Source: Spirochaetia bacterium
GTDB taxonomy: Bacteria; Spirochaetota; Spirochaetia; UBA9216
NCBI GenBank assembly: GCA_965140585.1
Contig: OZ223270.1
Location: 96,001-160,000, forward strand
Direction: 5' to 3'
Length of the DNA: 64,000 nucleotides
The translations under genes and the position numbers were made by a program. The stretch's first letter is position 1; every line of letters begins with the position of its first letter. Of the stretch, positions 25,722 to 62,055 are shown in pieces. Below the pieces are notes generated by a model. That model was not told where the DNA came from. It was given only the letters and a program-made list of their open reading frames with translations, and did not search any database.

Positions 25722-25745
25722 TTGATTCTATAAATATTATCCTTT

Positions 25746-25988
25746 TTACATTTGTTTTGAATTTACGTAGATCACAATTTTCTCTACAGATCCAAAGTTA
25801 TTTCTATTCATATCAGCCGGCTCTGTCTCTATACCGAATTTCCTCTTTAAAAAACCAGAGATCTCTACAAGACCGAATGAATCAATTATCCCCTGATCAA
25901 CAAGAGACTCGTTCATATCTATTTCATGTTCTTCAACCATAAAATTCTGACATATAAATTCAATCAAACTTTGTTTTATAGACATCAC
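25746..25988 (-). CDS. Stand-alone acyl/aminoacyl carrier protein
   Basis: GIIDSFGLVE Ppant motif, FGIE, NFGSV; 80 aa. Confidence 0.9.
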   Translation of the reverse strand: MMSIKQSLIEFICQNFMVEEHEIDMNESLVDQGIIDSFGLVEISGFLKRKFGIETEPADMNRNNFGSVEKIVIYVNSKQM

Positions 25989-27964: not shown

Positions 27965-27975
27965 AAGACTACTCC

Positions 27976-30489
27976 TTAATTTCTTCTTCGCTGACGATTT
28001 CTTTCAGCTGCACGCTTAATCAACTTTCGCTTATCATTTTCATTATTAATGGTTATAGTTTGCCCCTTAACTCCATCACCTAAAAGAAGTTCTTCTTGCA
28101 ATTGTACTGTAGGATAATTCAACAGATCAATAAGAGCAATTTCATGACTTGAGAGTTTATCAAGCTGTTTTTTCAAATCCGGAAGAAGCTGAGAATGGCC
28201 ACCTAAATCAAAAAAGCTAACATCAAATGGAATCTCATTAGTTTTTAACAACGAGGCCCAAATTAACTGAATTTCACCTATCATTCCCTCCGAAAAATTA
28301 CTATTTTTTGATTTCTTTAAGTCTATCTGTGGTTTAATTAACGATAAAGCTTTCCTGTCAATCTTACCACTAGCAAGCAGAGGAAACTCATTGATAATAA
28401 TCATGTTGCTTGGAATCATATAACCCGGCAATGTTTTTGAGAGTTCTTTCTTTATTTTTGTCACATCACTAACATTTTCAGTTTTTAGATATGCATTAAT
28501 AGTCAAATCACCCGAAGATTTGCCAGGAATCATCACTACTGCGGTTCTTACAGATTCGAGAGCTTCTAGTTGACGCTCTATTTCAGCTAATTCAATCCTA
28601 ATACCATTTATTTTCACCTGTGTATCCTTTCTACCATCATAGAAGATAACTCCCTCTGCTGAGTAAAATCCAAGATCTCCAGTTAGATAGATTCTCTCAA
28701 AACCAAATCCCCAATCTCCTTCGATGAAAACCCTTGAAGTAAGCTCAGAATCATTTAAATAACCTGAAGACACATTTATACCAGAAATAGCTATCTCGCC
28801 TTTCACATAAGGAAGACAAAGTTTTCTGTATTTATCCAGAATATATATTCTAGTGTTGGCAATCGGATAACCTATCGGAATTCTGTTTGCTTCAATATCT
28901 TTTTCATTACATGTCCAAGCAGTAACATCAATAGAAGCTTCAGTCGGTCCATATAGGTTATGGAGTTGTTTATTCCCTACTTTCTCAAAAAACTGCTTTA
29001 GAAGAGGAACTTCTAAAGCTTCTCCAGAACAAATGACAGCAGAAAGATCAGGAAATAATGTATTTGACACATTATTCAGAAACTTCTTTAGTAGCGAAGG
29101 TACAAAGTGTACATATTTTATTTTCCTGTGCCTTATTATTTCTGCCAAATATTCATCATCAAGATACTTAGCCGGTTCAGGAATAAATAAAGAAGCTCCA
29201 GTTAGAAATGGCCAGAATATTTCCCACATTGAAACATCAAATGTAAATGGAACTTTATGTAAAATAGTATCACCAGGTATAAGAGGATAAACTTCTTGCA
29301 TCCAGAAAATTCTATTTACAAGACCATTTCCGTTTATCTCAACCCCTTTTGGATTACCGGTTGATCCACTAGTATATAAAACCGCAAAGGGATCATGTGG
29401 TTGTTTTATTATGTCTACAAGATTTTCATTATCTTCGGTATTAAAGTAATCGATGAAAACTGTATCAAAAGCTTCAAACTCCACACCGCTATTGCGTTTC
29501 TCTATTACAGCCAGACTTGCTCCAGCATTTTTCAGGATAAAACATACCCTAGCAACCGGCCAGTTCGGATCAATAGGAATATAAATATTTCCAGTATTTA
29601 CTATAGAATGGATAAGGATAATACGCTCTATCGAATTATCAATACTTACTGCAATAAATTTACTTGTACCAACTCTGGATATTATAGCGGTAGAATATTT
29701 TTTAACAAGGTGATCAAACTGTTTATAAGAATAACTTCTAGTATTATCACTAATTGCAATGAGATCTGCATAATCAATTCTGGATTGCTCAAGAAGTCTC
29801 CGTAAAGCTATTTTTACAGGATAGTCTCTGATTTTATCGGAATAAAATCGCTTTATGTATTCATCAGACAGTAAGGTAATATTAGAAATATTCTCATCTG
29901 GGTTTTCAAGAATTTTTCCAAGAATTAATTCATAAGAGTCTTTCCATTGCGTTACCTGACTTTGACTGAAAGCATTACTATTAAATTCCCATCGATACCG
30001 ATACTTTCCCTTTTCTATCCAATATGTAAAAAAAAGGTCCATTTGTGCACCGTCTGGCCTGATATCTACCGATATACATTCCACATCTTTAAGATTAAGA
30101 TTGAAAGGATCTTCTTTAGTAAAACCTACCTGAATAAAAAACGGGATTCGAATATCTCTTTGCCCCTTATAGAGCTTTAAAATCTCTAGAAAGGGAGCAT
30201 CTTGATTACGATTAAGAAGAAGCATTTGTTTCCGAATTTTTATATAAAGAGATGCAAAAGTATCTGCATTTTCTATTTGAACTCGAAGAGGCAGAATATT
30301 AACAAAAGGACCATACATATATTCCCGTTCCGGGTCTTTACGGTTGGGAAACGGTATACCGATAAAAAAATCCTCTTGACCACATAACTTGGAAAGTAAT
30401 ACAGCATAACTCGTTAATAGAACAATAAATTCTTGAAACTGGAATTCATCCTCAACCAGCTTTAACTTAGATGCCACCCAATCAGGCAT
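27976..30489 (-). CDS. NRPS, C-terminal part: half C domain-A(Ser)-T
   Basis: GPFVNILPLR; YTSGSTGNPKG; by-eye code DVWHISLIDK; GGHS. Confidence 0.9.
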   Translation of the reverse strand: MPDWVASKLKLVEDEFQFQEFIVLLTSYAVLLSKLCGQEDFFIGIPFPNRKDPEREYMYGPFVNILPLRVQIENADTFASLYIKIRKQMLLLNRNQDAPFLEILKLYKGQRDIRIPFFIQVGFTKEDPFNLNLKDVECISVDIRPDGAQMDLFFTYWIEKGKYRYRWEFNSNAFSQSQVTQWKDSYELILGKILENPDENISNITLLSDEYIKRFYSDKIRDYPVKIALRRLLEQSRIDYADLIAISDNTRSYSYKQFDHLVKKYSTAIISRVGTSKFIAVSIDNSIERIILIHSIVNTGNIYIPIDPNWPVARVCFILKNAGASLAVIEKRNSGVEFEAFDTVFIDYFNTEDNENLVDIIKQPHDPFAVLYTSGSTGNPKGVEINGNGLVNRIFWMQEVYPLIPGDTILHKVPFTFDVSMWEIFWPFLTGASLFIPEPAKYLDDEYLAEIIRHRKIKYVHFVPSLLKKFLNNVSNTLFPDLSAVICSGEALEVPLLKQFFEKVGNKQLHNLYGPTEASIDVTAWTCNEKDIEANRIPIGYPIANTRIYILDKYRKLCLPYVKGEIAISGINVSSGYLNDSELTSRVFIEGDWGFGFERIYLTGDLGFYSAEGVIFYDGRKDTQVKINGIRIELAEIERQLEALESVRTAVVMIPGKSSGDLTINAYLKTENVSDVTKIKKELSKTLPGYMIPSNMIIINEFPLLASGKIDRKALSLIKPQIDLKKSKNSNFSEGMIGEIQLIWASLLKTNEIPFDVSFFDLGGHSQLLPDLKKQLDKLSSHEIALIDLLNYPTVQLQEELLLGDGVKGQTITINNENDKRKLIKRAAERNRQRRRN

Positions 30490-31118
30490 ATCTGCAAATA
30501 GAGTTTCTCCATCACCAGTAAATACACCTCTTTCAGATTTTCAGAAGGCAGAAGCAGAGGGGAGGGTTCATTTTTTATTTGGTTTTTCCAAAAATCAATA
30601 TTAAAAATACATAAGGAATTCGCTTTATAATCTGTTAATTCAAATGAAAGTTTGTTAGTATTATACAACTCAGAAATGGCTCTGGATAATAAATGTTTAG
30701 AGTGAAGATCTATTAAAATATGATGTTGAATAATGCAAAAATAGTTTAAATTATCATCAAGATTAATTAATCTTGCTTCCAAAGGGAGTTCAGTATTTTC
30801 TAAAAAAAATTTCTGGTTAGATAATTTCTGAATATATTCTTTAGCCTCTGAATCTGAGCTCATTGAAACTACTTTAAGTTCATTATCTGGTAAGGCTCCA
30901 AAAACAGCTTGGAATACAGTATTCCAAGACTTAAATAGCCTATCCTGATCCAATTTATTAGATATTCTACAACATAGCACAATATTATACGCAATATCTG
31001 TTTTATACAGCGCGTTGATAGTTTTAAAATGCATTTGATTAATGGTAATATTATTATTCATTTTACTTTTAACCCTTATTATAAATTGTGAAATAACATA
31101 ACTCGGGGAACATATCAA
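30462..31118 (-). pseudogene. N-terminal half of the same NRPS condensation domain, split by a 1-nt frameshift (real or sequencing error)
   Basis: QHHILID (HHxxxD), FWKNQI, LLLPS; the other frame continues RGVFTGDGETLFADMPDW from about 30530. Confidence 0.75.
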
Positions 31119-41151: not shown

Positions 41152-43956
41152 CTATTTAACTAATACTTTCTTTTTTCGGTTTTTATATTTATAAACAAAA
41201 CGTCCAGAAACTTCCATAAAAACGGTCCATAATCGATAAGAAACCACCCCACTAATCAACCCAATCAATACCTGAACGGGCCAAATTGACGGCATTCCTA
41301 AATTTGATAATTCTGAGAGTACAAAAGAATGAACGATGTAAATAAACAATGAAGCAGAAGCTATCTCGAGGATGATTGTTTTTAGATTCTTAGGAAACCG
41401 GATTCTGTCTATCCATATAATCAATAACATGACAAGATAAAACGATATAGGCAAGTAACGATATGTCACCAATCCGGGAATATCCAATCTTGTTAATACA
41501 AACGGAATAAATAGACTAACTGTTAGAAAAATCCGCTCCTTCGTACATGTGGTGCTAGAGATCGCTACACCAAATGCAATTGGCCAAAGCCAGGGAAATG
41601 GTCCGATACTTTCACTTCCAAGACTGCCATTCCAAAATCCAGTTAAGCTCTGTAATACTCCAAGGACAATAGCCCCTAGAGATACTGTCATATCTAGCTT
41701 GAATTGACTATCTTGGTTAGGAACTCTCTGTGTTTTACCTTTTTTCCAGGAATATAGTACAATCAAAGTAACGACGGAAAGGATTAATATATTCGCTGTC
41801 AAAATATCAAGAAACCAATACCCCCAACGGCCATTTCCTGGTTTTTGAAACATTGTGTTAAGAAGAAAAAAGTCAGGTAGCCAAAAACGATGATTTTGAA
41901 TAGAGCATAATGCATTCCATAAAAATACAGGAAATCCATAGCTAAAAATAAATCTAAAAATTCCGTTAAGATTTCCTTTCTGGTAAATTGTAGGACGTAA
42001 AAACTTCCCAAAACTGAGCCCTGATAATACAAATAGAACCGAGGCATCTGGCAGATGATTAAAACCTAAATGACCCATTATAACAAATGTGATAGCAATA
42101 GCACGAAACAAGCTTGTCATATCAATATAAGTCCAGACTTTTGATTTTTGTTTAGTCTTTTTTTTACCGAGCAACACATTAAGGGGCATTATTTCCCACC
42201 TATCCGGCAAATAGCCTATATGTTTTTCAATGAATAATGAAACCCTAATGTACGATAATGAATCACCTCCTAAAGCAACAAACGATGACTCTATAGTATC
42301 TATATGCCTGCCTAATACTGATTCTATCTTTTTTATAATGACTATATCTGATGGATCAATATCCTCAAGGCGATATAAATCTTCAGAAGGCTTACTACAA
42401 CTTGAATCAATATCCATTAAGGCTAGAGCCTTACGATCCGTTTTGCCATTTAATGTAAGAGGATATTCATCCACCTGCATAAAGAGATTTGGAATCATAT
42501 AAGTAGGCAAGATATTAGATAAGTCTTTCTTTATCGCTTCAACATTTATATCTCTACCATCTTTAGCAATAATATATGCAGCAAGCTGCTTGTTACATTT
42601 GGAGAGCTCCTTAGCCACAACCACAGCGTTATGAATTGAAGGATTATTCATTAATGCATATTCAATATCTCCTAGCTCAATCCTATAGCCCCTTATCTTG
42701 ACTTGAAAATCAGATCTTCCAATATACTCAATATTTCCATCTTCATGATAACGGCAAACATCTCCGGTTTTATACAACCGGTCGGTATCAAGCCCCCATT
42801 CAGAAGGACATGTTAGAAACCTTTCAGAGGTTAACTCATCCCTGTTTAAGTATCCTAAAGACAGCCCGATACCGCCGATATATAATTCACCTGTCTCGCC
42901 AATAGTTACCGGATTAAGCTGATCATCAAGTATTATCATTACTGTATTATCTATTGGCTTCCCAATAAGAGGTTGCTGGTTACACCCTCTCAACCTGAAA
43001 GCTGAAGACCATACTGTTGTTTCTGTAGGACCATAAAAGTTCCAGACTTCATCACAATTTTCAGTAAGTTTATTAGCAATATCAGCTGACACGGCTTCTC
43101 CACCGCATACAATTTTTTTCAAAGAAGAATTTTTCCAACCATAGTCAAAAAACATTTGGAAAGATGTAGAGGTAGCCTGCATCATAGTAACCGAATTCTT
43201 ATCAATATATTCGATAAGCCGCCCGATATCTCTGGCCATTTTGGTAGTCGCCAATACTATTGTGGCTCCAACGATAAAAGATAGATAAAGTTCAGGAACA
43301 GACATATCAAATGAGATAGTTGCAAGAGCAAGGAATTTATCGTCTTCAGTAATTCCAGGCTTCTTCTTCATTGATAATAAAAGGTTTAGAAGAGCTCTGT
43401 GTTGAATCTGAACGCCTTTTGGGGTCCCGGTTGATCCTGAAGTGTATATTATATAAGCTAAAAAATCACCCTCGATCTTTATTGCAGGCGGTAAAGCCTC
43501 TTCTTTATCTATTTGCGCCTTCTCATCTTCGATAACCATAACATCTACATCAGCATTATCGAAAAGTTTTTCAACTAATGCTTTTTGAGATATTATAGAA
43601 GCAAGTCCAGAGTCATCAACCATATAAGAAAGTCTGGATTTTGGAAAATGAGGATCCATAGGAATATAACACGCACCTGTTTTTAAAATACCTAGCAGAA
43701 CAGGTAACAGATCAATATTTCTTTCCAAGCATACACCAACAATAGTTCCATTTTTAATATCTTTTTTAATAAAGTAGTTTGCATATTTGTTGGAAAGAAT
43801 ATCAAGTTCTCTATATGAAATTTTATGGTCTTCAAAGATTACTGCAGTATTATTATTTTCTTTACTTACATCTTTAAAAATTTCAAGGAAATTTGAGTGC
43901 TTCCCTAAATCCACAGTAGTATTATTTATTTCTTTTATTATGCTCTCCAGCATCAC
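41152..43956 (-). CDS. Adenylation domain + carrier domain + acyltransferase-3-like membrane domain fusion
   Basis: YTSGSTGTPKG, YGPTE, NGKTDR; LGGDSLSY; FRAIAI.FVIMGH, LFVLSG, YWFL, SLFIYIVH with many TM segments. Confidence 0.85.
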   Translation of the reverse strand: MMLESIIKEINNTTVDLGKHSNFLEIFKDVSKENNNTAVIFEDHKISYRELDILSNKYANYFIKKDIKNGTIVGVCLERNIDLLPVLLGILKTGACYIPMDPHFPKSRLSYMVDDSGLASIISQKALVEKLFDNADVDVMVIEDEKAQIDKEEALPPAIKIEGDFLAYIIYTSGSTGTPKGVQIQHRALLNLLLSMKKKPGITEDDKFLALATISFDMSVPELYLSFIVGATIVLATTKMARDIGRLIEYIDKNSVTMMQATSTSFQMFFDYGWKNSSLKKIVCGGEAVSADIANKLTENCDEVWNFYGPTETTVWSSAFRLRGCNQQPLIGKPIDNTVMIILDDQLNPVTIGETGELYIGGIGLSLGYLNRDELTSERFLTCPSEWGLDTDRLYKTGDVCRYHEDGNIEYIGRSDFQVKIRGYRIELGDIEYALMNNPSIHNAVVVAKELSKCNKQLAAYIIAKDGRDINVEAIKKDLSNILPTYMIPNLFMQVDEYPLTLNGKTDRKALALMDIDSSCSKPSEDLYRLEDIDPSDIVIIKKIESVLGRHIDTIESSFVALGGDSLSYIRVSLFIEKHIGYLPDRWEIMPLNVLLGKKKTKQKSKVWTYIDMTSLFRAIAITFVIMGHLGFNHLPDASVLFVLSGLSFGKFLRPTIYQKGNLNGIFRFIFSYGFPVFLWNALCSIQNHRFWLPDFFLLNTMFQKPGNGRWGYWFLDILTANILILSVVTLIVLYSWKKGKTQRVPNQDSQFKLDMTVSLGAIVLGVLQSLTGFWNGSLGSESIGPFPWLWPIAFGVAISSTTCTKERIFLTVSLFIPFVLTRLDIPGLVTYRYLPISFYLVMLLIIWIDRIRFPKNLKTIILEIASASLFIYIVHSFVLSELSNLGMPSIWPVQVLIGLISGVVSYRLWTVFMEVSGRFVYKYKNRKKKVLVK

Positions 43957-46294: not shown

Positions 46295-47641
46295 TCAGGG
46301 ATTCCGGGATACGTTGACATAATATTGCGAGACTAAAGCCCCAGCACAAAAAACATAGACTGGATTAAACATTGAATTCATTAGTGAATCTATCATAAAA
46401 AAAGTAACTAATATGCATAGTAAAAAAAGATAAAGTCTTCGTTTTTCGGAATTAATATCTAAAGGGACTTCTTTATTTTTATAGTACTTCAGAATAAAAT
46501 ATGCACCGCTCCCGAGAGTAAAAAAAACGCTAAACAACCCCGCAATGCCATAGGTGCTGAATATTCCAAGCCAAAGGGAGTCTAAAATAGAGAAAAGCTC
46601 TTTACCAGTAACCGGATCAACAGGATATGCCCGCCGATAGCCAGCCCATCCGAACCAAAATCGTTGAAGAGTTTTTTCAGCAAATAAATCCTCCTGCCAC
46701 ATCCTAAAGAGTAATGAGGCAACTCTATTAGAGTCAAATATAATGCTAAAAAGCTGTCCAAACCTTCTGACAGGTATAATATTAAATATTCTAGTAATAA
46801 AATAAATAGGGATACCGCTCATTATTACACGAAGCCATTTAATAGCATTGTGACTATTTCGTTTGTATATATAAATTAAGAATAAACCTAAAGTCAAGAA
46901 AATCCAACCATTGGCTGATTTACATAAAATTGTTAGTACAATAAAGAGTACAGATAGAAATGACAACTTTAGCTTACCTAACTTTTGAATATACCCCATT
47001 TTCCAGTTACTGTATGAAAAGATAGTTACCATAGTCATCCAAAATGAAACCATTAACCCATGCTGCATAAAAACTATAGGTCTCCATCCTCCATAGCGCA
47101 TATGCTGAATCAATTTATGCTGAAGCCAGCCATATAATAACTCATGAAAAAAAGGCCCCTTTGATAATTCAACAATAATAAAAGGAATATATATCACTCC
47201 TCCTATAATAACACCTCGTACAAGTCTGAACAGGGATTCATCATCATTAATAAACTTACGGCCTGCCCAATATAGAGCTCCCCATGTAAGCAGATTACTC
47301 AAACTTTCTGAGACACCGCCATATAAACTCAAGCCATTTGAAAGTGCGGTTATAACAGGAAGGAGTGAGCACCATAGCAACATCGGGATGTCTACCGGTC
47401 TAAACTTATCAATAATTTTGGTATTTGGACTAATCTTTACACTTCCAATAAATAAAGAAACGCCGATTGCAATATTTTTGTTATACTGAGGAAATCCAGG
47501 CAGATCCAAATAAGCCATTGGTAAAAATAAAACACCGCCGATCAGTACAATCAATACAGCCTTTGTAGCATCAACGACTCTAAAAAGAATTACAGAGAAT
47601 AGTATCCACCCATATATCATTACAGTTGCCAAGACTGTCAT
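46295..47641 (-). CDS. wzy: Wzy polymerase / O-antigen ligase-family membrane protein
   Basis: Multi-TM; RYGGWRPIVFMQH, CKS.NG, FGW.G..R, DSLW; adjacent to the flippase. Confidence 0.75.
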   Translation of the reverse strand: MTVLATVMIYGWILFSVILFRVVDATKAVLIVLIGGVLFLPMAYLDLPGFPQYNKNIAIGVSLFIGSVKISPNTKIIDKFRPVDIPMLLWCSLLPVITALSNGLSLYGGVSESLSNLLTWGALYWAGRKFINDDESLFRLVRGVIIGGVIYIPFIIVELSKGPFFHELLYGWLQHKLIQHMRYGGWRPIVFMQHGLMVSFWMTMVTIFSYSNWKMGYIQKLGKLKLSFLSVLFIVLTILCKSANGWIFLTLGLFLIYIYKRNSHNAIKWLRVIMSGIPIYFITRIFNIIPVRRFGQLFSIIFDSNRVASLLFRMWQEDLFAEKTLQRFWFGWAGYRRAYPVDPVTGKELFSILDSLWLGIFSTYGIAGLFSVFFTLGSGAYFILKYYKNKEVPLDINSEKRRLYLFLLCILVTFFMIDSLMNSMFNPVYVFCAGALVSQYYVNVSRNP

Positions 47642-47675: not shown

Positions 47676-49031
47676 TCAGATCAACCCTCCTGGGAAACCT
47701 AAATTAAAAACCATTCTTAGAGACAAAAATATCGCAATCAAAAGAAATAGAAAAAGTGTCGCGACCAAGTCCTGTTTAATTAAAGAAAATTTCTCCCGAA
47801 CTAAAGCAATGTTAATAACTATATAAACAGCAATATCATTAAAAACTATACCCAGTATAGTTCCAATATCGCCAAATAAATGAAACAATAATGGTACAAT
47901 TGAAATCATATATAAAAATTTTAGCAAATTTCCCAATGTCAAATATTGTGGTTTTCCAATCGACATTAGAACACGGTCTATAGTAACAATCAAAATTAAT
48001 GGCCACATTCCTACAGCAAGAAGTGGCAAAATCCATGCCGCTGCTGCATACCTGTCGTCATAAAGAAATAAAATTATGAAATCACCAAAACAGCTGAAGA
48101 TTGATACAAAAACAGCCATAGCAAGTAAAATTAGTCTTCTTGGTTTTGCAATTTTTGCTCTTAAATCATCTGCAGGCAGATGATTAAACTTGGAAATAAG
48201 TGGGTAGATGACCGTATTGCTCAATTTTTCCAATACCTTTTTTGGCAATTCGGAAAAGTTTAATGCAATATTATAGACCCCAAACATGGTAATAGAGAAA
48301 AGTTTACCTAGTAATAATCTGTCAGACTGTGCTGCTAAAAACATAACAGCTGTAGACATCCAAATCCACATCCCAAAATGAAGCAGTTCGGAAAGGGAGG
48401 TTTTTTCCAGCCTGAATCTATTCTTTATTCCCTCGTTTATCTTATGACTCCATAAAGTTTTTACTATTTCAGAAACCAATCCACGAATTATCAGAGACCA
48501 AACACTCCCGGTAAGATACGCAACTATTACCATTATTATCAAACTAACTAATTGAACACCTAATTCCAGTATTACGAGTTTTTTTTGATTTAACTCTTTA
48601 TTCAATAAAAACAATGATGTGGAAGAAAACCCACTAACCAAAGAGTTAATTGCAATAACGGGTAACAATTGCAGTAAAATGGGCTGTTCATAAACTCTGG
48701 AAACAGGATATGCACAAATCACCAATGCAATAGCAAGGATAACACCTCTCAAAACTTGCAAAGTCCAGGCAGTATTTATAAAATCTTCTTCATGTACTCT
48801 ATCACTTCGAATAACACAAGGGCCAAGCCCTATATCTGAAAACAAGGCGAGTCCAAGCTGAAAAACTGTACCAATGGCTACAATACCGAATAATTCCGGT
48901 GCCAGCAACCTTGTTAATACGACATTTCCAAGAAGACGTAGAAATTGAGAAGACCCGAACCCAAAAACTATAAAAAGTGAAGATTCTATCGCTTTTTTCT
49001 TTAATATTTTATCAGATTCATCATTAACCAA
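47676..49031 (-). CDS. wzx: Oligosaccharide flippase
   Basis: LTRLLAPELFG, SDIGL, NTAWT, DRLLLGK, GVYNIA. Confidence 0.9.
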   Translation of the reverse strand: MVNDESDKILKKKAIESSLFIVFGFGSSQFLRLLGNVVLTRLLAPELFGIVAIGTVFQLGLALFSDIGLGPCVIRSDRVHEEDFINTAWTLQVLRGVILAIALVICAYPVSRVYEQPILLQLLPVIAINSLVSGFSSTSLFLLNKELNQKKLVILELGVQLVSLIIMVIVAYLTGSVWSLIIRGLVSEIVKTLWSHKINEGIKNRFRLEKTSLSELLHFGMWIWMSTAVMFLAAQSDRLLLGKLFSITMFGVYNIALNFSELPKKVLEKLSNTVIYPLISKFNHLPADDLRAKIAKPRRLILLAMAVFVSIFSCFGDFIILFLYDDRYAAAAWILPLLAVGMWPLILIVTIDRVLMSIGKPQYLTLGNLLKFLYMISIVPLLFHLFGDIGTILGIVFNDIAVYIVINIALVREKFSLIKQDLVATLFLFLLIAIFLSLRMVFNLGFPGGLI

Positions 49032-51310: not shown

Positions 51311-52492
51311 TTATTGAACTTTCCTGTGTTGCAAACTGTAGTTAATACCTTCGGGAATTTTATTTGAACCAAACTTAGATGCGACGGACTCAAACATCAT
51401 ACCTAAAATGACAACAGGCGTTCTAATAATAATCCTAAGGTCGTTTAACAGACTCATATTTTTGGCATAACTTATATCAAGCCTAATCATCTCTTTAAAT
51501 GTAAGCTTATTCTTTCCACTAACCTGCCAAAGGCCCGTCATACCAGGAACTGTATCAAACCTATGCGTATGCCACCGCAGGTACTCATCAGCTTCATAGG
51601 GGATACATGGTCTGGGCCCAACAAGACTCATATCACCAAAAAGCACATTTAATAGCTGAGGAAGTTCATCGATACATGATTTTCTAAAAAACTGACCACC
51701 CGGAATAATTCGAGGGTCTTTATCATCAAGCTTCTCCATAGGAACATCACCATTCTTAATAAAGGTCTGGGCATGTTTCCCATGGAAACTCTGGTTATTA
51801 TCATGTTTCATTGAGCGAAATTTATAGAATTTAAAAGGTCTACCTTTATAACCAATCCTTGTCTGTGTAAAAAAAACAGGTCCTGGAGAAACAATCTTAA
51901 TATACAGACTGACAGCTGCAAATAGTGGTGATAAAACAAGAAGCATTATGAATGTTACAGAAACATCCATGGCTTTTTTCCACACAGGGATCTTCATAGT
52001 GAACATATCTTCAGTACAAGCACTTACATCAATTTTTTTATCAGAACAGCCTTCATTTTTATATCCAGATGAAGCATCCTTATTTTTTAACCACTTATCA
52101 GGATAGGTATATATGTCAAAACTGTTATGGTCTTGTTTAATAATAGGAATCTGCTCTAAAATTTTTTTACCAAGAATCAACGCGCCTTTTTCTGCTGTAT
52201 CGGGAAGAAGAATTGCTACATGCTTTTTATCATACCAGCCGATATGATCAATTACCCGAACTAACGTTTTAACTTCTTCAACAAAGATGTTAACCTTCTT
52301 TTTGCTTGAATAAAGAAGGTCCGAAGTAAATAAAATAATAGAAAAAACGGAACCATTACGATCCGCTCTGACTCTTTCATAATTTATTAACTCTTTGAAT
52401 TCTTTTGAAGAATAAATATCATTACTCTTCCATGTCTCTTCAGAAAAAGACTGAAGCTTATTCCATTTTTGTCTTTTTTTTAAAGACTGCAT
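51311..52492 (-). CDS. Priming phosphoglycosyl (sugar) transferase with an N-terminal degenerate GGDEF-like domain
   Basis: C-term SPGPVFF, KFRSM, DELPQL, MSLVGPRP, PGMTGLWQV; N-term ERVRADR..FSII, RVIDHIGWYDKKHVAILLPDT. Confidence 0.88.
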   Translation of the reverse strand: MQSLKKRQKWNKLQSFSEETWKSNDIYSSKEFKELINYERVRADRNGSVFSIILFTSDLLYSSKKKVNIFVEEVKTLVRVIDHIGWYDKKHVAILLPDTAEKGALILGKKILEQIPIIKQDHNSFDIYTYPDKWLKNKDASSGYKNEGCSDKKIDVSACTEDMFTMKIPVWKKAMDVSVTFIMLLVLSPLFAAVSLYIKIVSPGPVFFTQTRIGYKGRPFKFYKFRSMKHDNNQSFHGKHAQTFIKNGDVPMEKLDDKDPRIIPGGQFFRKSCIDELPQLLNVLFGDMSLVGPRPCIPYEADEYLRWHTHRFDTVPGMTGLWQVSGKNKLTFKEMIRLDISYAKNMSLLNDLRIIIRTPVVILGMMFESVASKFGSNKIPEGINYSLQHRKVQ

Positions 52493-52507: not shown

Positions 52508-52882
52508 TTATAAGGACAATTGCTCATTTAACAATTCAACAGGGGTTATCTTGTAATTACTGGAGAATTTCACGGCAAGCCCCTGAGCTGTAGCACGTGT
52601 AACCATTCCCTCAACTGTGAGCTTAACCTTGTTTGATACTTCAAAAAGCTCTTTCAGCTTATCTACCGTAAGAATCAGTTCAACATTAACCTTACTGCCC
52701 GGACCCATTGCTTGCTCTGAGGTCTCAATAAACACACCACCAGAGGAAACATCTCTTGTTTCTGCTGCTTCCAGGCTGGAGCCTGATTCATCTTCTGTTA
52801 ACTTTACCGGGACTCGCAACGAATATCGTTCTACCCGTCTGTTTTCTCTATTATTCATATCGCAATTGTAATTATATCCCAA
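52508..52882 (-). CDS. Stand-alone PilZ domain protein
   Basis: RRVER (RxxxR) and DVSSGG (DxSxxG); C-terminal GLAVKF. Confidence 0.9.
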   Translation of the reverse strand: MGYNYNCDMNNRENRRVERYSLRVPVKLTEDESGSSLEAAETRDVSSGGVFIETSEQAMGPGSKVNVELILTVDKLKELFEVSNKVKLTVEGMVTRATAQGLAVKFSSNYKITPVELLNEQLSL

Positions 52883-52991: not shown

Positions 52992-53663
52992 CTACAAATT
53001 CTGGGCTGCCCAGAGTGCTGCTTGAAGACGGTTAGGAACATTTATTTTTTTAAATATATTATATAAATGAGTTTTAACGGTATTCGGACTTATAAACATT
53101 TTTTCTGCGATTTCATCATTTGTTGATCCCATGCTTATTAAAGATAGTATCTCAATCTCTCTGGGAGTCAGTGAAGTTTTCTCTTCAATGATGGCCTTCT
53201 TTTCATCAAAACTCTCAAAAACATACTCTAATAAAATCTTTCTGGATATCCATATTTCTCCATCTATTATCGCCTTGATTCCCTTTAGAAAAATCTCAAA
53301 CTGGTCATCTTTATAAAAGAAACCTCTTATTTGCCTAGACAGAGCCTTTTTCTCAACCTTTGCATTCTCATGAAGATTAAAAAGCGCTATAAGTGATTTT
53401 GAAAGATTATTATTGGTAGCTATATTTTTTAATATTTCCTCGAAACTCTGCTCTTCACTATCTATAAGGATAAGAGTCTTCGAATCGTTATGAAATTCTT
53501 CTTTTTTTATACTCTCCGAGAAAGCGTTTAGATCCCTATCATATATAGTGCATTTTGCACCAATTTCTTTTTGAATAACATATAAAAAGAATTCACTCTG
53601 AAGAGTAAGGGAGCTTATTATAAAAATATTTACTTTGCTATAATCTGTTATCTGTTCTTCCAT
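52992..53663 (-). CDS. LuxR-family regulator, CsgD/VpsT-like
   Basis: Atypical receiver, GEIWISRK, LTPREIEIL, TVKTHLYNIFKKINVPNRLQAALWA. Confidence 0.88.
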   Translation of the reverse strand: MEEQITDYSKVNIFIISSLTLQSEFFLYVIQKEIGAKCTIYDRDLNAFSESIKKEEFHNDSKTLILIDSEEQSFEEILKNIATNNNLSKSLIALFNLHENAKVEKKALSRQIRGFFYKDDQFEIFLKGIKAIIDGEIWISRKILLEYVFESFDEKKAIIEEKTSLTPREIEILSLISMGSTNDEIAEKMFISPNTVKTHLYNIFKKINVPNRLQAALWAAQNL

Positions 53664-53714: not shown

Positions 53715-54929
53715 ATGGAAAAAAATCAAAGTACATTAACTGAAGAAAGAAGTTTAGTTGAAATATTTCTGCAATATTTGTCCATTATTTTACGATATAA
53801 AGTTTTTGTTGTAGTCATCACTGCTACTGCAGCAATCTCTATAGTAACATTCTCAATAGTTTCACTGAAATTGCCCCCAGAGCGTAGCCCTCTACCTAAT
53901 AATTACAAATCTGATGCAAAATTAATTTTTCAGTCAAGTAGCGATGCAGGAGGAATGTCCTCAATGATGGCTATGTTTGGTGTAGATACATCAACCAGCA
54001 GCATTAATGATCCTTCTCAAATGGCTTTACAAGTCCTACAAAGCAGACCATTCCTAGATAGCATTTCAGAAAGCCTAAATCTAGCAGAAAAGTTCGATCT
54101 CAACGATAAAGATGATAAATCTACTATACGGCGTATAATTTTTCTTGGCTCAACATATTATTATAATAAAACAACAGGAACGCTCTCAATCTCATTCATC
54201 AGCACCGAACCTGAATTCGCTAAACAGGTTGTTGACACAGAGGTTGCACTATTGAGTGAATGGTTTCAAAAAGAAGGGGTTTCAATGCGCTCGAGCCAAC
54301 TCCAAATGCTTGAAGACAAACTTAGCGAATTATCAATAGAAATAACAAAAATCGAGAATGAAATAGAAGCTTTTCAAAAGGAGCTTGGCGTTCTTGATAT
54401 TGAACAACTTGCTCAAACACAAGCAGCACTACTACTAGACCTTAGAACTAGATTGAATCAGATTGAACTCGAAATAGGGGAGTATTCTGAATACTCCACT
54501 ATTGAAGATCCTGCACTTGTTAGACTAAATGCGCAAAAATCGAATATCATTAGCCAGATACGGAGGGTTGAAAGAGGATATATAAGTAGTGATGGAAGAA
54601 AAATGCCCTCAACCGAAGAACTTCCCCAGTTATCGCTTAAATTTTCTCACCTTAAAACCGACTTAGAACTTCAAATGCAGCTCTACCAGACCCTATCCGA
54701 ACGATACGAAGTAACTAAACTTGCCGCCGCAGAGGAAGGCGTTTTTAGCATCCTTGAACCTGCAGAAGTTCCAACTGAAAAAGAAGGTCCTTCAAGAGGA
54801 AAACTCTGTATGATAGTAACAGCGGGAGCTTTTTTCGGTAGTATAGTTATAGCTTTACTGATAAATCTGCTGTTAAGTGTTATAAAGGATCCTGACAAGA
54901 TTAAAAAAGTAAACAGGGTAACTTTCTAA
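53715..54929 (+). CDS. Polysaccharide co-polymerase (Wzz/GumC-like, no kinase domain)
   Basis: Two TMs flanking a coiled coil; ILEPAEVP..K.GPSR. Confidence 0.85.
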   Translation: MEKNQSTLTEERSLVEIFLQYLSIILRYKVFVVVITATAAISIVTFSIVSLKLPPERSPLPNNYKSDAKLIFQSSSDAGGMSSMMAMFGVDTSTSSINDPSQMALQVLQSRPFLDSISESLNLAEKFDLNDKDDKSTIRRIIFLGSTYYYNKTTGTLSISFISTEPEFAKQVVDTEVALLSEWFQKEGVSMRSSQLQMLEDKLSELSIEITKIENEIEAFQKELGVLDIEQLAQTQAALLLDLRTRLNQIELEIGEYSEYSTIEDPALVRLNAQKSNIISQIRRVERGYISSDGRKMPSTEELPQLSLKFSHLKTDLELQMQLYQTLSERYEVTKLAAAEEGVFSILEPAEVPTEKEGPSRGKLCMIVTAGAFFGSIVIALLINLLLSVIKDPDKIKKVNRVTF

Positions 54930-56476
54930 TGAAAAAAAACTTTTTAGTTTTATTATTTCTATCCCATGCCGTTTTATTCGCACAGGATTTCAGACTTTCC
55001 AGTCAAAACCAACAAGAAAGTTCTGCCATCCAATATCTTCCTCAGGCAGTCATACCGTTACAGGCAGTAACTGAAGAAGCAAGCAATCTGCAAATTGCCA
55101 TTTCAAGTCGTAATTATCCGGTCACTCCGGGTGATGTTTATACTCTTACCTTTCTTCTTGCAGGAGAAACAGTGTCAAACACGTTACTAGTTGAAAGTGA
55201 TTACACGATAAACATGACAATATTCGGAAAGATAAATGCTGAAGGAATGACATTTGCGCAGCTAAAACCAATAATTGAACAGAAAATTGCCGATGCATAC
55301 CCGAGAAGTCTTCCTTCAGTTACAATAACTTCAGTCGGCGTTTTTCAGGTACCGGTACTTGGCGAAGTCCCGGAATCCCGCTTTGTTACGGCATGGGGGC
55401 TTTCCAGACTTAGTGAAATAATCGAAGGTAATTTGACTGATTATTCCTCAATAAGAGATATAAAAATAATTCATGGAGACGGAAAAACAGAGAGCTTTGA
55501 CATTCTCAGAGCCCTGAATCATGGCGAACTGGAAGAAAACCCTAATGTAAAACCAAGCGATAAAATCATTATTTCAAGGCTTCATAGAGAAATTGCAATA
55601 TCCGGCGAAGTCTATCGTCCAGGGGATTTTCAACTGCTTGATAGTGATAGCGTCGAACAGGTCACATATTACACAGGCGGATTTACACCGCGTGCTGACA
55701 TGTCCCGCATTAAAATAGACCGCTATTCCTCAGGACAGCCCGAATCATTTACACTAGATTTTAATAACCTGCCAGCTGATTTTAGATTTGAAAACGGGGA
55801 TGTAATCATTGTCCCTACAGTCATAAATAGGCAGCCTGTTGTATACATTGATGGCGGCGTTAGCGGTGAGCGGACTACTATTGGTTCACAGACATCAATA
55901 CAAGATCTAAATTCACAAGCACAAAACTATAACAGGCTCGTCTCCCCACTAAAAAGCGGCGAAACCTTATATGACATACTCAACAATGTACGCAAAAGTC
56001 TACTGCCCTTTGCTGATCTTGAACATGGATTTGTAATCCGAGGCGAAGAGATAATTGCAATCGATATGCAGGATCTCATTTATGACTTCAATATGGCAAG
56101 AGACCTTACCCTAGAACCTTTTGATAGGATCATAATTCCAGTAAATAGACCTGAAGTCTATGTAACAGGAGCTGCAAACATACCAGGCGTTTACCCGTAC
56201 AACCCTGAAGAGGATTATACCTATTATGTAAACCTTGCCGGAGGATTCGATCCAATTCGAAACAAAAACAGAGTTGCAGTGCTGATGGACCGGGATGGAA
56301 ACAGAAAAAATATAAAGGATCCAATCTTACCAGGAGATACTGTAAATGTTCTATCGAATGATTTTCTTTATAATTTTAATCAATACTTCCCGGCTATAAC
56401 TACAGGTTTAACTTTTATTATCACATTAATTACATTATCACAGTACCTAAACCAGACTTATGATACATCACAGTAA
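54929..56476 (+). CDS. Polysaccharide export protein (Wza/SLBB repeats)
   Basis: YPVTPGD, VLGEV, SGEVYRPG, GGFT..AD, VTGA...PG, LAGG repeats. Confidence 0.85.
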   Translation: MKKNFLVLLFLSHAVLFAQDFRLSSQNQQESSAIQYLPQAVIPLQAVTEEASNLQIAISSRNYPVTPGDVYTLTFLLAGETVSNTLLVESDYTINMTIFGKINAEGMTFAQLKPIIEQKIADAYPRSLPSVTITSVGVFQVPVLGEVPESRFVTAWGLSRLSEIIEGNLTDYSSIRDIKIIHGDGKTESFDILRALNHGELEENPNVKPSDKIIISRLHREIAISGEVYRPGDFQLLDSDSVEQVTYYTGGFTPRADMSRIKIDRYSSGQPESFTLDFNNLPADFRFENGDVIIVPTVINRQPVVYIDGGVSGERTTIGSQTSIQDLNSQAQNYNRLVSPLKSGETLYDILNNVRKSLLPFADLEHGFVIRGEEIIAIDMQDLIYDFNMARDLTLEPFDRIIIPVNRPEVYVTGAANIPGVYPYNPEEDYTYYVNLAGGFDPIRNKNRVAVLMDRDGNRKNIKDPILPGDTVNVLSNDFLYNFNQYFPAITTGLTFIITLITLSQYLNQTYDTSQ

Positions 56477-56511: not shown

Positions 56512-57724
56512 GGGGCTGACTCATAAGAAGTCAGCCCCTTTTAAAATTTACATCAGATCTTAATCATGCTAGAATTCCTTACGCCAAAGGGAGTAAGTGA
56601 TAAATTAACTCTCAAGCCGTATGATGTCGGTCAGGGTGAATTGATTCTGCCTACGGCCGACGAGCTAATACCAGCCAACCATTTAGTGAGGATAGTTAAT
56701 TCAACCCTAGAACAACTTGATCTCTCACAGCTTCTAAAACAGTACAAAGGCGGTGGAGCCAGCCGATATAATCCTTTGATGCTCTTGAAGGTTCTTGTGT
56801 ATGGTTACCTGAATAATGTATACAGCGGTCGGATGTTGGCAAAAGCAGTTAAAGAGAACATATATTTTCGCTGGATAACCGGATGTCAGATGTCCGATTT
56901 CCGAACAATCAACTTATTTCGTAAAGATAAACTTGCCCCGGTAGTAAATGAGGTATTTGTGGAAGTAGTAAAGCTTCTGCACAAACAGGGATACGTACAG
57001 CTATATACAGTTTACGTTGATGGGACAAAGATAGAATCAAGAGCAAATAGATATACCCTTGTCTGGAGGAAAGCAGTGGATACATTCTACAGTCGTCTTG
57101 AATCCAAGGTGAGAAGCTGTCTTGAAGATGCAAAACGGATAGCAGATGAAGAAGATGGGAAAGAAGTAAAAAAAAACTAACAAAGATTTATAAAAGTCTA
57201 ACCCGGGATTTCTTACCCCGCAAAAAGAAGTATGAATATCACAGAGAACAATTTAACGGCCGGAACAGTTATTCAAAGACTGATAAAGATGCCACGTTCA
57301 TGCGGATGAAAGAAGAGCATATGAGAAACGGCCAGCTGAAACCAGGATACAATATTCAGGTTGGAACCGAGTCCGGTTTTGTAACTACGTATGGGATCTA
57401 CCCAAATCCAACTGACGCTAGAACGCTGCCGTTGGTGTTGGAACAATTTTAAAACGATTACTCTCATTATCCAAAGAACCTCATTGCAGACAAAGGCTGG
57501 AGATTGTACCGGAAACGAGCGGCAGAGGTTGAAACGGTATTTGGTCAGATTAAAGGGAATCAGAGGTTCCGAAGATTCAATGGATGGGGGAAATTGAATG
57601 CCTCCTGCGAGTGGGACCTTCTGATGATGGCTTATAATATGAAGAATCTGACAATTACCTCATCGAGTTAGGTGGTGAGGTATAAAAAAGGGGGCTGGCT
57701 AAGATTAGTTCTTAGTCAGCCCCC
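56512..57724 (+). mobile_element. IS1182-family element, internally deleted
   Basis: Terminal IR GGGGCTGACT(C/A)A(T/G)AA (13/15 match); transposase fragments inside. Confidence 0.85.
56566..57671 (+). pseudogene. IS1182 transposase pseudogene
   Basis: YNPLMLLKVLVYGY, DFRTINLFR, DGTKIESRANRY; after a frameshift [31 protein letters not shown]; ADKG joined directly to RLYRKR..VETVFGQIK. Confidence 0.9.
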
Positions 57725-59791: not shown

Positions 59792-60733
59792 GTGAAAAAT
59801 AGAAAATTTTTTATTAGTTTAATTGCCACTTTTACTAGTCTCTTTATTTTAGTCAATTTCATGGTAGCACTACGTTTACCGATTTACAAAATAAAAGATG
59901 AGGGCAAATTTATCAATATACCTAATAATATCCTAATTTCTAATGTAGGAGGCAGCCATGGATTAAGAGGAATTGATTGGTCTGTAATTGATGATGATAG
60001 ATGTTTTAACTTTACACTATCAGCCCAAACTCTTTCTTACAGTCTTCGTGTAGTGGAATGTTTTAAAGAAAACTTTTCCTCTGGAGGGGTTCTTGTTATT
60101 AATGTTGGATTTGGATATCTAAGCTATGATGAAAAACCACAAATAAATTTCCCTTCTAAAAATAAGCGTTACTATTCATTTCTTGCTCCAGAATACATCA
60201 AAGATTATAAATTACTTGATGCTATAAAATATAAATTTCCAGTTTTTTATTACAGTTATGACATAATCAATCTCATTAGACAACTCATCTTTACCGAACC
60301 AGAATTAGCGTCTGAGGTTGGTAAACGCAAAATCGATCTAAGCAAAGTTGATTTGCAGGCTAAAATGGCGATAGAGGAACACATAATCCAATATAATAAA
60401 CAGTTTAACCAGAGGGAAATTGAGGCTCTTTATGGTATTATTAATTTTTGTAAAGAGAATAACATTACACCAGTAATAATCACCTTCCCGCATTTAGATG
60501 AATATCTTGAACTGATTCCAATAGATTTTAAAAAGGAATTCTATAAAAAGATTGAGTATATTTCCAATGAAATTAGTGTGAATTACTATGACTATTCTAA
60601 CGATCAACGATTTAGAAGATATGATTTATATTTAAATTCCGATCATCTAAATAATTATGGTGCTGAAGTTTTCACAAAAATCATTATTGAGGAAATTCCT
60701 GAAATAAAGAAAACCTTAGACGTCTTAGATTGA
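59792..60733 (+). CDS. SGNH-like partner of the MBOAT (AlgJ/DltD-like)
   Basis: N-terminal TM, GGSH, NSDHLN..GA; directly follows the MBOAT gene. Confidence 0.75.
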   Translation: MKNRKFFISLIATFTSLFILVNFMVALRLPIYKIKDEGKFINIPNNILISNVGGSHGLRGIDWSVIDDDRCFNFTLSAQTLSYSLRVVECFKENFSSGGVLVINVGFGYLSYDEKPQINFPSKNKRYYSFLAPEYIKDYKLLDAIKYKFPVFYYSYDIINLIRQLIFTEPELASEVGKRKIDLSKVDLQAKMAIEEHIIQYNKQFNQREIEALYGIINFCKENNITPVIITFPHLDEYLELIPIDFKKEFYKKIEYISNEISVNYYDYSNDQRFRRYDLYLNSDHLNNYGAEVFTKIIIEEIPEIKKTLDVLD

Positions 60734-60842
60734 GAGCCTATTAATTTTAAAGCGCATAGAATTATCCTCTTAGAGACAAAAATAGAAAGTCATGTTCTAG
60801 GTATTGATTCAAAAAGTAATTTTTTTCTAAAATCTTTATAGA

Positions 60843-61892
60843 TTATAACCATTTCTTATAAAATAAATTAATCTTATTTAAAGCAATAGCAGACAGGATT
60901 GAAAAAAATAATACGGAAATATAATAAGTCATACTATTTATATCAAAAAAGGACTTTCGAAGTAATATCAAAAACAAATTATGTATCAAATAAAGCTCTA
61001 AACTAATTTGCCCTAAAAAAACACTTATCTTATTTGAAAATCTTAACTTTAGAAAAATTAATACACAAGTAAATATAAAAAATATTGACGTTAGTAATTC
61101 TAAAAAGAATTTTATCAATTCATTGCATGATAAAAACTTTATAGCCAAATTCTTTGCTAAAAACAATGAAATAAGTAAAGAAAATGAAATCAGTAACTTA
61201 ATAAAATAAAATTTCTTCAAAGATTCTGATATTTCTTTTTTATAAGCAAAAAGCACACCAAGATTAAATGTTATACAGGAATTATACCAAAATCTCCCTT
61301 TATCAAACAAAATACAAACTATTATATATATAAATGTCGTTAAACAAGATAATAAAAATATCAGTTTCTCTTTGTTAGTAATTTTTACGGTTATAAAGAA
61401 TAGTACATAAAAATATATGACTGCATGAATATACCAAGCCTGTATGTTTACTAGAATAATTCCAGAAATCTTTTCAATTGCCCCAAAAACACTGAAATTT
61501 CCTTTTTCGAGAATTAGAAAGTATAACAAATTTATTATAAAAAACGGTATTATTAATCCAAATATTCTTTTTCTAAAAAAGTTTTTTAAATAATCTTTTT
61601 TGTATTTATAGCTGTACATAACTCCGTATCCAGAGAAAAAAAAGAAAACACTTACACATAAATAGCCAGTTATCAAAAAAGGATATAATAAAATTTCATT
61701 TTGAAGGACTTGGCTCAAATGATGATAAATTACAACTAAAACGCAAATACCTCTTATTGAAACTGTAGAGTCAAACGACAGATAGTCCTCGTAAAAAGAG
61801 TTTCCTTTTATTACCTTGCAATTCCAAAAGACTACTACTAATAGTAGTAAAACTGTAATAAACATTATTAACAACCTCACAAGAAAAAGCAA
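60843..61892 (-). CDS. Acyltransferase-3 family protein
   Basis: IRGICVLVVIYHH, VSVFFFFSGYG, AWYI, ISLELYLIH. Confidence 0.85.
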   Translation of the reverse strand: MLFLVRLLIMFITVLLLLVVVFWNCKVIKGNSFYEDYLSFDSTVSIRGICVLVVIYHHLSQVLQNEILLYPFLITGYLCVSVFFFFSGYGVMYSYKYKKDYLKNFFRKRIFGLIIPFFIINLLYFLILEKGNFSVFGAIEKISGIILVNIQAWYIHAVIYFYVLFFITVKITNKEKLIFLLSCLTTFIYIIVCILFDKGRFWYNSCITFNLGVLFAYKKEISESLKKFYFIKLLISFSLLISLFLAKNLAIKFLSCNELIKFFLELLTSIFFIFTCVLIFLKLRFSNKISVFLGQISLELYLIHNLFLILLRKSFFDINSMTYYISVLFFSILSAIALNKINLFYKKWL

Positions 61893-62055
61893 ACGATTGT
61901 TTATTTTTAAATATATTCAGCCTCTTTCTTGCATCCACAGAAAATTATACCAAAGATTTACAAGAGAACAAGTTATTTTATACAAACACTGTATTTACAT
62001 ATTCTGTAACCAATTAAAATCTAAAGCTTTTAATTGCCCTTCTTTTCGTTTAATC

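Follow-up and report, generated by a model that had tools for sequence, protein, structure and literature searches.

The DNA analysed here, called the window throughout, is a 64,000-nucleotide stretch of a Spirochaetia bacterium: positions 96,001 to 160,000 of contig OZ223270.1 in assembly GCA_965140585.1. At window positions 51311..52492, on the reverse strand, lies a gene whose product carries a phosphoglycosyl transferase (PGT) in its C-terminal half and, ahead of it, a degenerate relative of the GGDEF domain of diguanylate cyclases. An earlier note, made from the letters alone, had proposed that this N-terminal domain has lost its active site, keeps the RxxD motif of the allosteric I-site, and binds cyclic di-GMP (c-di-GMP) there to control the priming step of a Wzy-dependent polysaccharide pathway. 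Here we report a computational follow-up of that proposal. The parts of the gene are these:

51311..52492, reverse strand: the whole gene, 393 amino acids, encoding a GGDEF-like module, a disordered linker and a monotopic PGT (open reading frame listing, translation, AlphaFold)
52088..52426, reverse strand: truncated degenerate GGDEF-homologous domain, residues 23-135, about 113 amino acids (profile, AlphaFold, Foldseek)
52358..52378, reverse strand: E39-R-V-R42-A-D-R45 in helix 1, with R45 aligned to R198 of WspR
52247..52258, reverse strand: R79-V-I-D82, the RxxD (primary I-site) motif, aligned to RSSD of WspR and RQSD of 3ign
52217..52231, reverse strand: D88-K-K-H-V92, the place of the lost GG[D/E]EF signature, aligned to GGEEF of WspR and 3ign
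51989..52087, reverse strand: low-confidence linker, residues 136-168 (from the AlphaFold confidence score)
51404..51979, reverse strand: PGT catalytic domain, residues 172-363 (PF02397, TIGR03025, PDB matches)
51665-51670, reverse strand: D275-E276 pair, invariant in 43 fusion proteins and aligned to the D-E of WbaP

The ends of the open reading frame (ORF) coincide exactly with 51311 and 52492. Translation begins at an ATG, and a Shine-Dalgarno-like AAGGTGG stands immediately 5' of it. The full-length AlphaFold model of the 393-residue protein has a predicted local distance difference test (pLDDT) score of 82.7, with a confident catalytic core. The linker between the two halves is where confidence collapses: pLDDT falls below 50 at residues 135-156 in this model and at residues 140-160 in a model of the N-terminal domain by itself.

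The identity of the C-terminal half, which the earlier note had taken for a priming PGT, is borne out by every search that reached it. PF02397 (Bac_transf) matches residues 172-363 at E=1e-58 and 198.3 bits (cutoff 27), covering profile positions 1-178 of 179. TIGR03025, a model for exopolysaccharide polyprenyl glycosylphosphotransferases, matches over its C-terminal catalytic part at E=4.7e-72; its score stays under the cutoff set for whole proteins, since this protein lacks the N-terminal part of the model. The closest solved structures are WbaP (8t53, E=3.8e-35) and a PglC-type bacillosamine-phosphate transferase (8e37, E=1.4e-29). The Asp-Glu pair D275-E276 is presumably catalytic, as its counterpart is in PglC. 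P189 is likewise invariant across the 43 fusion proteins, and the model shows a re-entrant helix-break-helix made of helices 170-186 and 188-201.

A hydropathy scan finds a single hydrophobic stretch before the catalytic core, at residues 173-208, and leaves the N-terminal 170 residues soluble. A large, WbaP-type monotopic PGT (monoPGT) is ruled out by the same scan, in which neither a bundle of four transmembrane (TM) helices nor a domain of unknown function (DUF) lies ahead of the core. The protein thus belongs with the small, PglC-like monotopic PGTs and carries a soluble extension at its N-terminus. All matches to NCBIfam equivalog models fall far under their cutoffs and align over the C-terminal domain only; for this reason no sugar substrate is assigned. 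Its predicted activity is the transfer of a sugar-1-phosphate onto polyprenyl phosphate, a step that would begin the assembly of a lipid-linked repeat unit for polysaccharide export.

What is the N-terminal extension? The earlier note had seen the outline of a GGDEF domain in a handful of short strings, all of which are present: E39-R-V-R-A-D-R45, F50-S-I-I, R79-V-I-D82, H-I-G-W86, D88-K-K-H-V92 and A-I-L-L-P-D-T99. Searches with the single sequence recovered little. Against the PDB, phmmer returned for the N-terminal domain a single marginal match, 6khu, an entry named as a diguanylate cyclase/phosphodiesterase-domain protein (E=0.29), and a word-index search with residues 1-170 found 2 relatives. 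When 1.84 billion cluster representatives were searched exhaustively with phmmer, 690 relatives of the domain came up at E<=0.001, 104 of them at E<=1e-10. We scanned 150 relatives with Pfam, namely the 2 from the word index and 148 of the 150 listed by phmmer (P0153 and P0154 were left out). PF00990, the GGDEF family, matched 33 of the 150 at E<=0.01, and in five (P0005, P0009, P0054, P0066 and P0143) it scored above the curated cutoff.

A family profile gives a far clearer answer. We aligned the domain of the window's protein with 80 short relatives (81 members in all) and searched 177,635 PDB sequences with the resulting profile. Twenty of the 25 matches at E<=1 are named diguanylate cyclase, GGDEF, WspR or PleD. 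The best is 3ign (E=9.3e-14), followed by WspR constructs (8e-11 to 1e-9), with 6khu at 2.9e-5. The remaining five are 3bre (named simply as a response regulator), 8qj3 and 8qpf (ammonium transporter), 5xgb (PA0861) and filaggrin (E=0.7); no PelD structure is among the 25. With such E-values for 3ign and WspR, and with the motifs co-aligned, the resemblance that the note had perceived goes beyond chance. The same profile, run against the longer length class of a collection of 5.8 billion proteins, gave 34 matches: the best 25 are sugar transferases annotated only with PF02397, followed by nine genuine members of PF00990 (E from 6e-9 to 1e-5).

Structure prediction points the same way. In an AlphaFold model of the domain built with this alignment, residues 25-135 have block-mean pLDDT values of 88-97, and the elements run helix-strand-helix-strand-strand-helix-strand. 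Foldseek returned 67 PDB matches at E<=0.001, and among the matches listed 33 of 33 are GGDEF entries. The best is 6khu from Thermotoga maritima (E=3.5e-7, template modelling score 0.70 by target, 115 columns); 3ign, GcbC, WspR, DosC and PleD come next. Because family profile matches, AlphaFold model and Foldseek agree, we regard homology to GGDEF domains, and a predicted GGDEF-like (palm-like) fold, as established. It is not a full GGDEF domain of about 160 amino acids, however: its span is about residues 23-135. The alignment covers roughly positions 10-125 of the 161 in the GGDEF profile, so that the C-terminal end of the fold is missing.

Has this domain kept any of the functions of a GGDEF domain? 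We built a hidden Markov model from 160 domain segments and aligned 313 domain copies to it. The conservation counts that follow refer to 304 copies from 270 family proteins, counted over non-gap cells; nine proteins annotated with PF00990 were set aside as a reference. The active site is gone, as the earlier note had said. Positions 88-92 read G-G-[E/D]-E-F in 9/9 of the genuine GGDEF proteins and never read GG[D/E]EF in the family, where 208 copies have D and 18 have G at position 88, and position 92 is filled by I, L or V. Opposite the substrate loop of the cyclases, between strand 1 and helix 2, the family has a gap of 9-10 residues. With the GG[D/E]EF signature absent and the substrate- and metal-binding loop incomplete, an active cyclase is ruled out.

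The I-site has fared differently. R79xxD82 is followed by five residues and then by positions 88-92, which is the spacing of the I-site motif to the former GGDEF. The claim that RxxD is conserved in homologues holds up well: R79 is found in 285 of 290 copies and D82 in 289 of 290. Conservation remains high in a distant subset of 140 copies (P0155-P0285), in which R79 is kept in 123/127 and D82 in 126/127. Nearby, G85 is invariant (290/290), and position 86 is W in 248/290 family copies versus R in 9/9 genuine GGDEF domains. Helix 1 is conserved to the same degree: E39 in 285 of 286 copies, R42 in 280 and R45 in 278.

The position of these helix-1 residues is suggestive. In the alignment with WspR, counting back from R242, R45 corresponds to R198 and R42 to R195. 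The core of the WspR I-site is R242xxD245, and R198, given in trans, completes it; the R198A and R242A proteins are both reported to purify free of nucleotide (PMC2270323). From these alignments, the family appears to have dropped catalysis yet kept both halves of a bipartite allosteric site. The counts show strong purifying selection on the RxxD motif and on the position of the trans arginine.

How far does the module extend beyond this gene? Its 690 cluster representatives make it, on sequence criteria, an unannotated family. Among the 150 relatives scanned, Bac_transf is present in 60. Seven carry two or three tandem copies of the module before one sugar transferase domain (P0005, P0007, P0008, P0009, P0010, P0049 and P0124), with RxxD retained in each copy aligned; in P0005, three copies precede Bac_transf. 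When the 270 family proteins are sorted by what follows the last copy, at least 200 amino acids follow in 107 (96 with one copy, 8 with two and 3 with three), fewer than 60 in 124, and an intermediate length in 39, many of which are contig-end fragments with a partial Bac_transf. The metagenome-assembled genomes (MAGs) that carry fusions are labelled Desulfobulbaceae, Proteobacteria, Deltaproteobacteria, Ca. Deferrimicrobiaceae, Tepidisphaeraceae and Spirochaetales/Spirochaetia. Judged by sequence, then, the fusion recurs across several phyla, tandem forms included.

The stand-alone forms of 126-165 amino acids look real, because ESM Atlas clusters of them exist and because short proteins occur on contigs of up to 70 kb. 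Three such clusters have 68, 79 and 115 members, with representatives of 126, 140 and 163 amino acids, and go by the name 'hypothetical protein'; in one of them PF00990 is annotated on 11% of members. Precomputed Pfam annotation of 87 family matches shows nothing for 60, PF02397 alone for 27 and PF00990 for 0. Fusions are named 'sugar transferase', 'hypothetical protein' or 'lipopolysaccharide/colanic/teichoic acid biosynthesis glycosyltransferase'. The sole hint of the homology in any annotation is that three short proteins were named 'PleD family two-component response regulator' by the Joint Genome Institute. A plasmid collection contains zero matches to the N-terminal domain; there, the full-length query matches through its transferase half only, and 0 records cover at least 80% of it.

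The surroundings of the gene in the window bear both on the pathway and on the signal. The relevant neighbours are:

52508..52882, reverse strand: single-domain PilZ protein, 124 amino acids (PF07238, E=2.8e-8)
52992..53663, reverse strand: VpsT/CsgD-like regulator of the LuxR family, 223 amino acids (GerE, E=9e-22; VpsT-like_REC, E=1.6e-6)
53715-54929, forward strand, divergent: gene for a protein like the polysaccharide copolymerases (PCP), with GNVR at E=0.0018, under cutoff, and two terminal hydrophobic segments
54929-56476, forward strand, divergent: Wza-type exporter gene (Poly_export, E=1.1e-9; SLBB)
47676..49031, reverse strand: Wzx-type flippase (Polysacc_synt_3, E=4.9e-51)
46295-47641, reverse strand: polytopic membrane protein, 448 amino acids, with no Pfam match, between a glycosyltransferase family 2 (GT2) gene and the Wzx gene
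14270-15292, reverse strand, and 15426-16841, forward strand: cyclic nucleotide (cNMP)-binding domain fused to HD_5 (HD-GYP-type), listed jointly with the adjoining sigma-54 response-regulator activator

The PilZ protein has both of its motifs intact, RxxxR at residues 12-16 and DxSxxG at residues 44-49. Its stop codon lies 15 nucleotides before the start of the transferase gene; because the gap is this short, the two genes are probably co-transcribed. On the strand of the PilZ gene there is a promoter-like site at 52940-52911. The regulator, farther upstream, also matches the CsgD model NF007505 (E=2e-35, under cutoff) and contains the tetrad W138-I-S-R141, which we take to resemble the W[F/L/M][T/S]R motif for c-di-GMP binding in VpsT. 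The protein that combines a cNMP-binding domain with HD_5 is, from its domains, a candidate c-di-GMP phosphodiesterase. PilZ and the VpsT-like regulator suggest a gene context rich in c-di-GMP. Neither figures in the earlier note; they strengthen that context, yet they also offer a rival sensor.

Downstream of the transferase gene lie genes for a GT2 enzyme, Alg14/Alg13-like proteins, the Wzx-type flippase, further glycosyltransferases and acyltransferases, together with nonribosomal peptide synthetase/polyketide synthase (NRPS/PKS) genes. The assignment of the gene to a Wzy-dependent pathway stands in part: the cluster has the Wzx-type flippase, the PCP-like gene and the Wza-type exporter, and we infer the Wzy polymerase from the polytopic ORF at 46295-47641, which matches no family and is the only candidate. 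With that proviso for its Wzy part, the label 'Wzx/Wzy-dependent' is a reasonable one.

Several other features of the window deserve mention. The NRPS/PKS-type genes lie within the polysaccharide cluster at 20187-30489 and 41152-43956, on the reverse strand; their products are a 1844-residue AMP-binding/KS/AT/PP/TE protein, a C-A-PP protein, an asparagine synthase and a 934-residue AMP-binding protein, and their presence suggests acyl or aminoacyl decoration of the polymer. One Condensation domain appears to be split over the overlapping reverse-strand ORFs 30462-31118 and 27976-30489, of which one covers profile positions 90-162 and the other positions 236-450; the cause may be a frameshift or an error in sequencing. 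A fragment of a DUF772 transposase lies at 56566-57180, on the forward strand, directly 3' of the Wza gene, and G+C falls to 0.26 at 60-62 kb (60001-62000), near MBOAT/DltD-like and acyltransferase genes. The transposase fragment and the dip in G+C may mark the edge of an acquired region.

A genome scan with the single protein found two further loci, both in one Spirochaetia MAG. The first (L002; CAXXYH010000004.1, 8001-8636) is the remnant of a gene, 211 amino acids long: its N-terminal domain and the beginning of its membrane helix share 71% identity with the protein from the window, and it lacks the catalytic domain. It keeps the synteny of the Wza, PCP, VpsT-like and PilZ genes, with a WecG/TagA-type transferase downstream. 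The second (L001; 7977-9185) encodes a full-length fusion paralogue whose N-terminal domain is 83% identical. Its neighbours are a gene for a protein with methyl-accepting chemotaxis, HAMP and hemerythrin domains (MCP-HAMP-hemerythrin) and a methyltransferase gene.

What, then, might the module do? We hold it probable, if only by a little, that the N-terminal domain is a c-di-GMP receptor that regulates the fused PGT. Several observations weigh against it. The N-terminal 171 amino acids alone gave no Pfam match even at E<=10 and no NCBIfam match. At the helix-3 position that corresponds by spacing to R390 of PleD and R402 of PelD, the protein has K110, and only 68/282 family copies have K or R there, against 106 with D (201/282 are basic at position 106 or position 110). 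Yet R402 is reported to be absolutely required for binding in PelD (PMC8461298). E39, R42 and R45 are each present also in 9/9 of the genuine GGDEF domains, a set of nine that was chosen by profile similarity; part of this pattern may be an inherited signature of the fold and not specific to a ligand. The pairwise alignment with 6khu places one extra residue in the motif, giving RxxxD. Finally, around the full-length paralogue L001 there is no PilZ gene and no polysaccharide cluster, which means that the c-di-GMP context at the locus level is not general and that PilZ is not an obligatory partner.

Some of these observations also feed the leading rival, in which the domain is a scaffold that binds no ligand: it would serve for dimerisation or docking, and so place or oligomerise the transferase or bring in other proteins of the cluster. 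The invariant charged residues would then be salt bridges or a protein interface and not a nucleotide site. The poor conservation of the third I-site arginine fits this picture, as do E39, R42 and R45, which are common to ordinary GGDEF domains and so may be structural. There is also a functional parallel: large monoPGTs are reported to act as dimers, and dimerisation induced by a partner activates EpsZ (PMC12802240). What the scaffold does not account for is the retention of RxxD in about 99% of the copies of a domain that lost all of its catalytic features. RxxD is a surface motif for which we know of no structural role in GGDEF folds, and many active cyclases do without it. The common stand-alone forms of 126-165 amino acids, moreover, suit a sensor of small molecules better than a tether. 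We consider a scaffold unlikely, though it is the alternative to be taken most seriously.

A second rival places the sensor next door. Here the adjoining PilZ protein would be the true receptor of c-di-GMP, and the N-terminal domain would be its docking site or would act jointly with it, so that the signal arrives through a protein partner. PilZ has the required motifs and lies 15 nucleotides away; the pairing is retained in L002 despite the loss of the catalytic part of the transferase gene; and there is precedent for activation of a PGT by a small partner in EpsW and EpsZ (PMC12802240). The pairing was seen, however, in two closely related genomes only, and the paralogue, with an N-terminal domain 83% identical, has no PilZ neighbour. 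Nor does a PilZ sensor explain why RxxD is invariant across phyla. All told, we find this explanation improbable.

Less probable still is that the retained site binds some other nucleotide, such as guanosine tetra- or pentaphosphate ((p)ppGpp), GTP, cyclic GMP-AMP (cGAMP) or cyclic di-AMP (c-di-AMP), and ties priming to another signal: the entries 9g85 and 9g86, listed as PleD with c-di-GMP and ppGpp or pppGpp, indicate that GGDEF domains can bind other guanine nucleotides, and the site is non-canonical, with W86 replacing a conserved arginine and the third arginine missing, but RxxD together with a trans arginine, as in WspR (PMC2270323), is not known as the signature of any site other than the c-di-GMP I-site, and the locus context (PilZ, the VpsT-like regulator) favours c-di-GMP.

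If the module is indeed a c-di-GMP receptor, how would it work? The module, which we take to be cytoplasmic, descends from diguanylate cyclases yet can no longer synthesise c-di-GMP, having shed the GG[D/E]EF signature, some of the substrate loop and the C-terminal end of the fold. It would bind c-di-GMP, probably as an intercalated dimer, and this dimer would bridge the RxxD of one module to the R45 of a second. The second module could belong to another subunit or, in tandem forms, to the adjoining repeat. By way of the flexible linker, such pairing would alter the oligomeric state of the transferase, or its geometry or orientation at the membrane, and would thereby gate priming. Priming would be on at high c-di-GMP; activation as the direction of the effect is a guess by analogy, made because c-di-GMP usually acts in this way on matrix polysaccharides. 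Both this direction and the details of dimerisation are weaker guesses than the claim of a receptor. The locus as a whole might read c-di-GMP at several levels: through the fused module, through the co-transcribed PilZ protein and through the VpsT-like regulator.

These ideas borrow from known systems, and the differences are as instructive as the likenesses. The closest functional parallel is PelD of the Pseudomonas aeruginosa Pel system, in which a dead GGDEF domain binds dimeric c-di-GMP at RxxD and exerts post-translational control over a polysaccharide (PMC8461298). PelD itself has four TM helices, a GAF domain and a full-length degenerate GGDEF domain; it needs R402 and, as a subunit of its own within a synthase-dependent system, acts on the GT4 enzyme PelF. 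Here, by contrast, a truncated GGDEF domain of about 113 amino acids is fused to the PGT of a Wzx-type pathway, and the equivalent of R402 is not conserved. The earlier note had called the domain 'PelD-type'. The label is loose: the PelD_GGDEF model (PF16963) has no match in this protein and matches 2 of the 150 relatives weakly, at 19-20.6 bits (cutoff 27), and the R402 position is basic in 68/282 copies. Membership of the PelD family proper, or orthology with PelD, is ruled out by the lack of that match, of a GAF domain and of N-terminal TM helices. By these comparisons, the domain is closer to the GGDEF domains of genuine cyclases than to PelD.

The coupling proposed here is that of the active cyclases WspR and PleD, whose I-site consists of RxxD plus an arginine given in trans and where c-di-GMP, intercalated, links a pair of GGDEF domains. 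The counterparts of R79xxD82 and R45 in WspR are R242xxD245 and R198. The difference lies in the output: the I-site of those proteins serves product feedback on a cyclase, whereas here there is no cyclase and the proposed output is a fused membrane transferase. Two further I-site receptors of the degenerate GGDEF type each serve one polysaccharide machine, namely BcsE, with its GIL/degenerate GGDEF architecture, in cellulose secretion (PMC8461298), and PssE of Listeria (PMC4125290). Each is a distinct protein within a synthase-type system; neither carries a priming PGT or is known to act on one. By analogy, the module may work like the I-site receptors PelD, BcsE, PssE and PopA.

The control point has precedents of its own. 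EpsW~P acts on EpsZ in Myxococcus, and CapB1 on CapM in Staphylococcus, at the initiating PGT of a Wzx/Wzy pathway, and activation of EpsZ is reported to work by promoting its dimeric state (PMC12802240). EpsZ is a large monoPGT with four TM helices and a DUF, unlike the present protein, which has a catalytic domain and a sensor only. The best structural match, 6khu, is a 131-residue 'DGC protein' from Thermotoga maritima that shares the short length, the degenerate signature and a Y-x-Y-P-like C-terminal strand; it differs in being stand-alone and in its RxxxD. Our literature search found no paper mentioning this entry. In the Caulobacter holdfast system, c-di-GMP reportedly acts directly on HfsJ, a glycosyltransferase of a Wzx/Wzy-type pathway. 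HfsJ is said to be a later, soluble glycosyltransferase and not the priming enzyme, and to lack a module derived from GGDEF.

The c-di-GMP receptor reading would thus put a known sensing principle to work on a new output enzyme and at a new control point, in a compact domain family for which no model existed before. Direct gating of the priming step by c-di-GMP, as the earlier note envisaged it, seems plausible from the sequence comparisons. Two of the conditions under which the note said its reading would fall, a fold unlike GGDEF and an RxxD that varies among homologues, do not hold; what the note had seen is confirmed, and its interpretation is supported in part. A full-text literature search, to which supplements and a 2021 PNAS paper on monoPGT fusion networks were outside the scope, found no paper on a GGDEF-like domain attached to a phosphoglycosyl or sugar transferase. 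The main text of a 2024 PNAS survey of monoPGTs contains 0 occurrences of GGDEF, c-di-GMP, diguanylate or fusion. Post-translational control by c-di-GMP is textbook knowledge for synthase-dependent polysaccharides: cellulose, alginate, Pel and poly-N-acetylglucosamine. A paper from 2025 calls the post-translational regulation of Wzx/Wzy pathways 'incompletely understood', in contrast to synthase-dependent systems, whose control by c-di-GMP it describes as known; for priming enzymes it lists tyrosine phosphorylation and a response-regulator partner only (PMC12802240).

We suggest, tentatively and as something a little short of an even bet, that these mini-GGDEF modules form a widespread, unannotated class of c-di-GMP receptors that gate Wzx/Wzy-type priming through c-di-GMP-bridged dimerisation of the transferase, with the stand-alone forms diffusing as adaptors to these enzymes or to others. 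The idea is directly testable because the module is small, soluble and recurrent in several phyla. A model of the family would re-annotate hundreds of clusters now called 'sugar transferase' or 'hypothetical protein'. If the module does gate the fused enzyme, a nucleotide messenger would for the first time be seen to switch a PGT directly, in a counterpart of control by PelD, BcsE and PilZ in synthase-dependent systems. Such a switch would sit where undecaprenyl phosphate is committed, and it would explain how matrix production can be adjusted quickly and independently of transcription.

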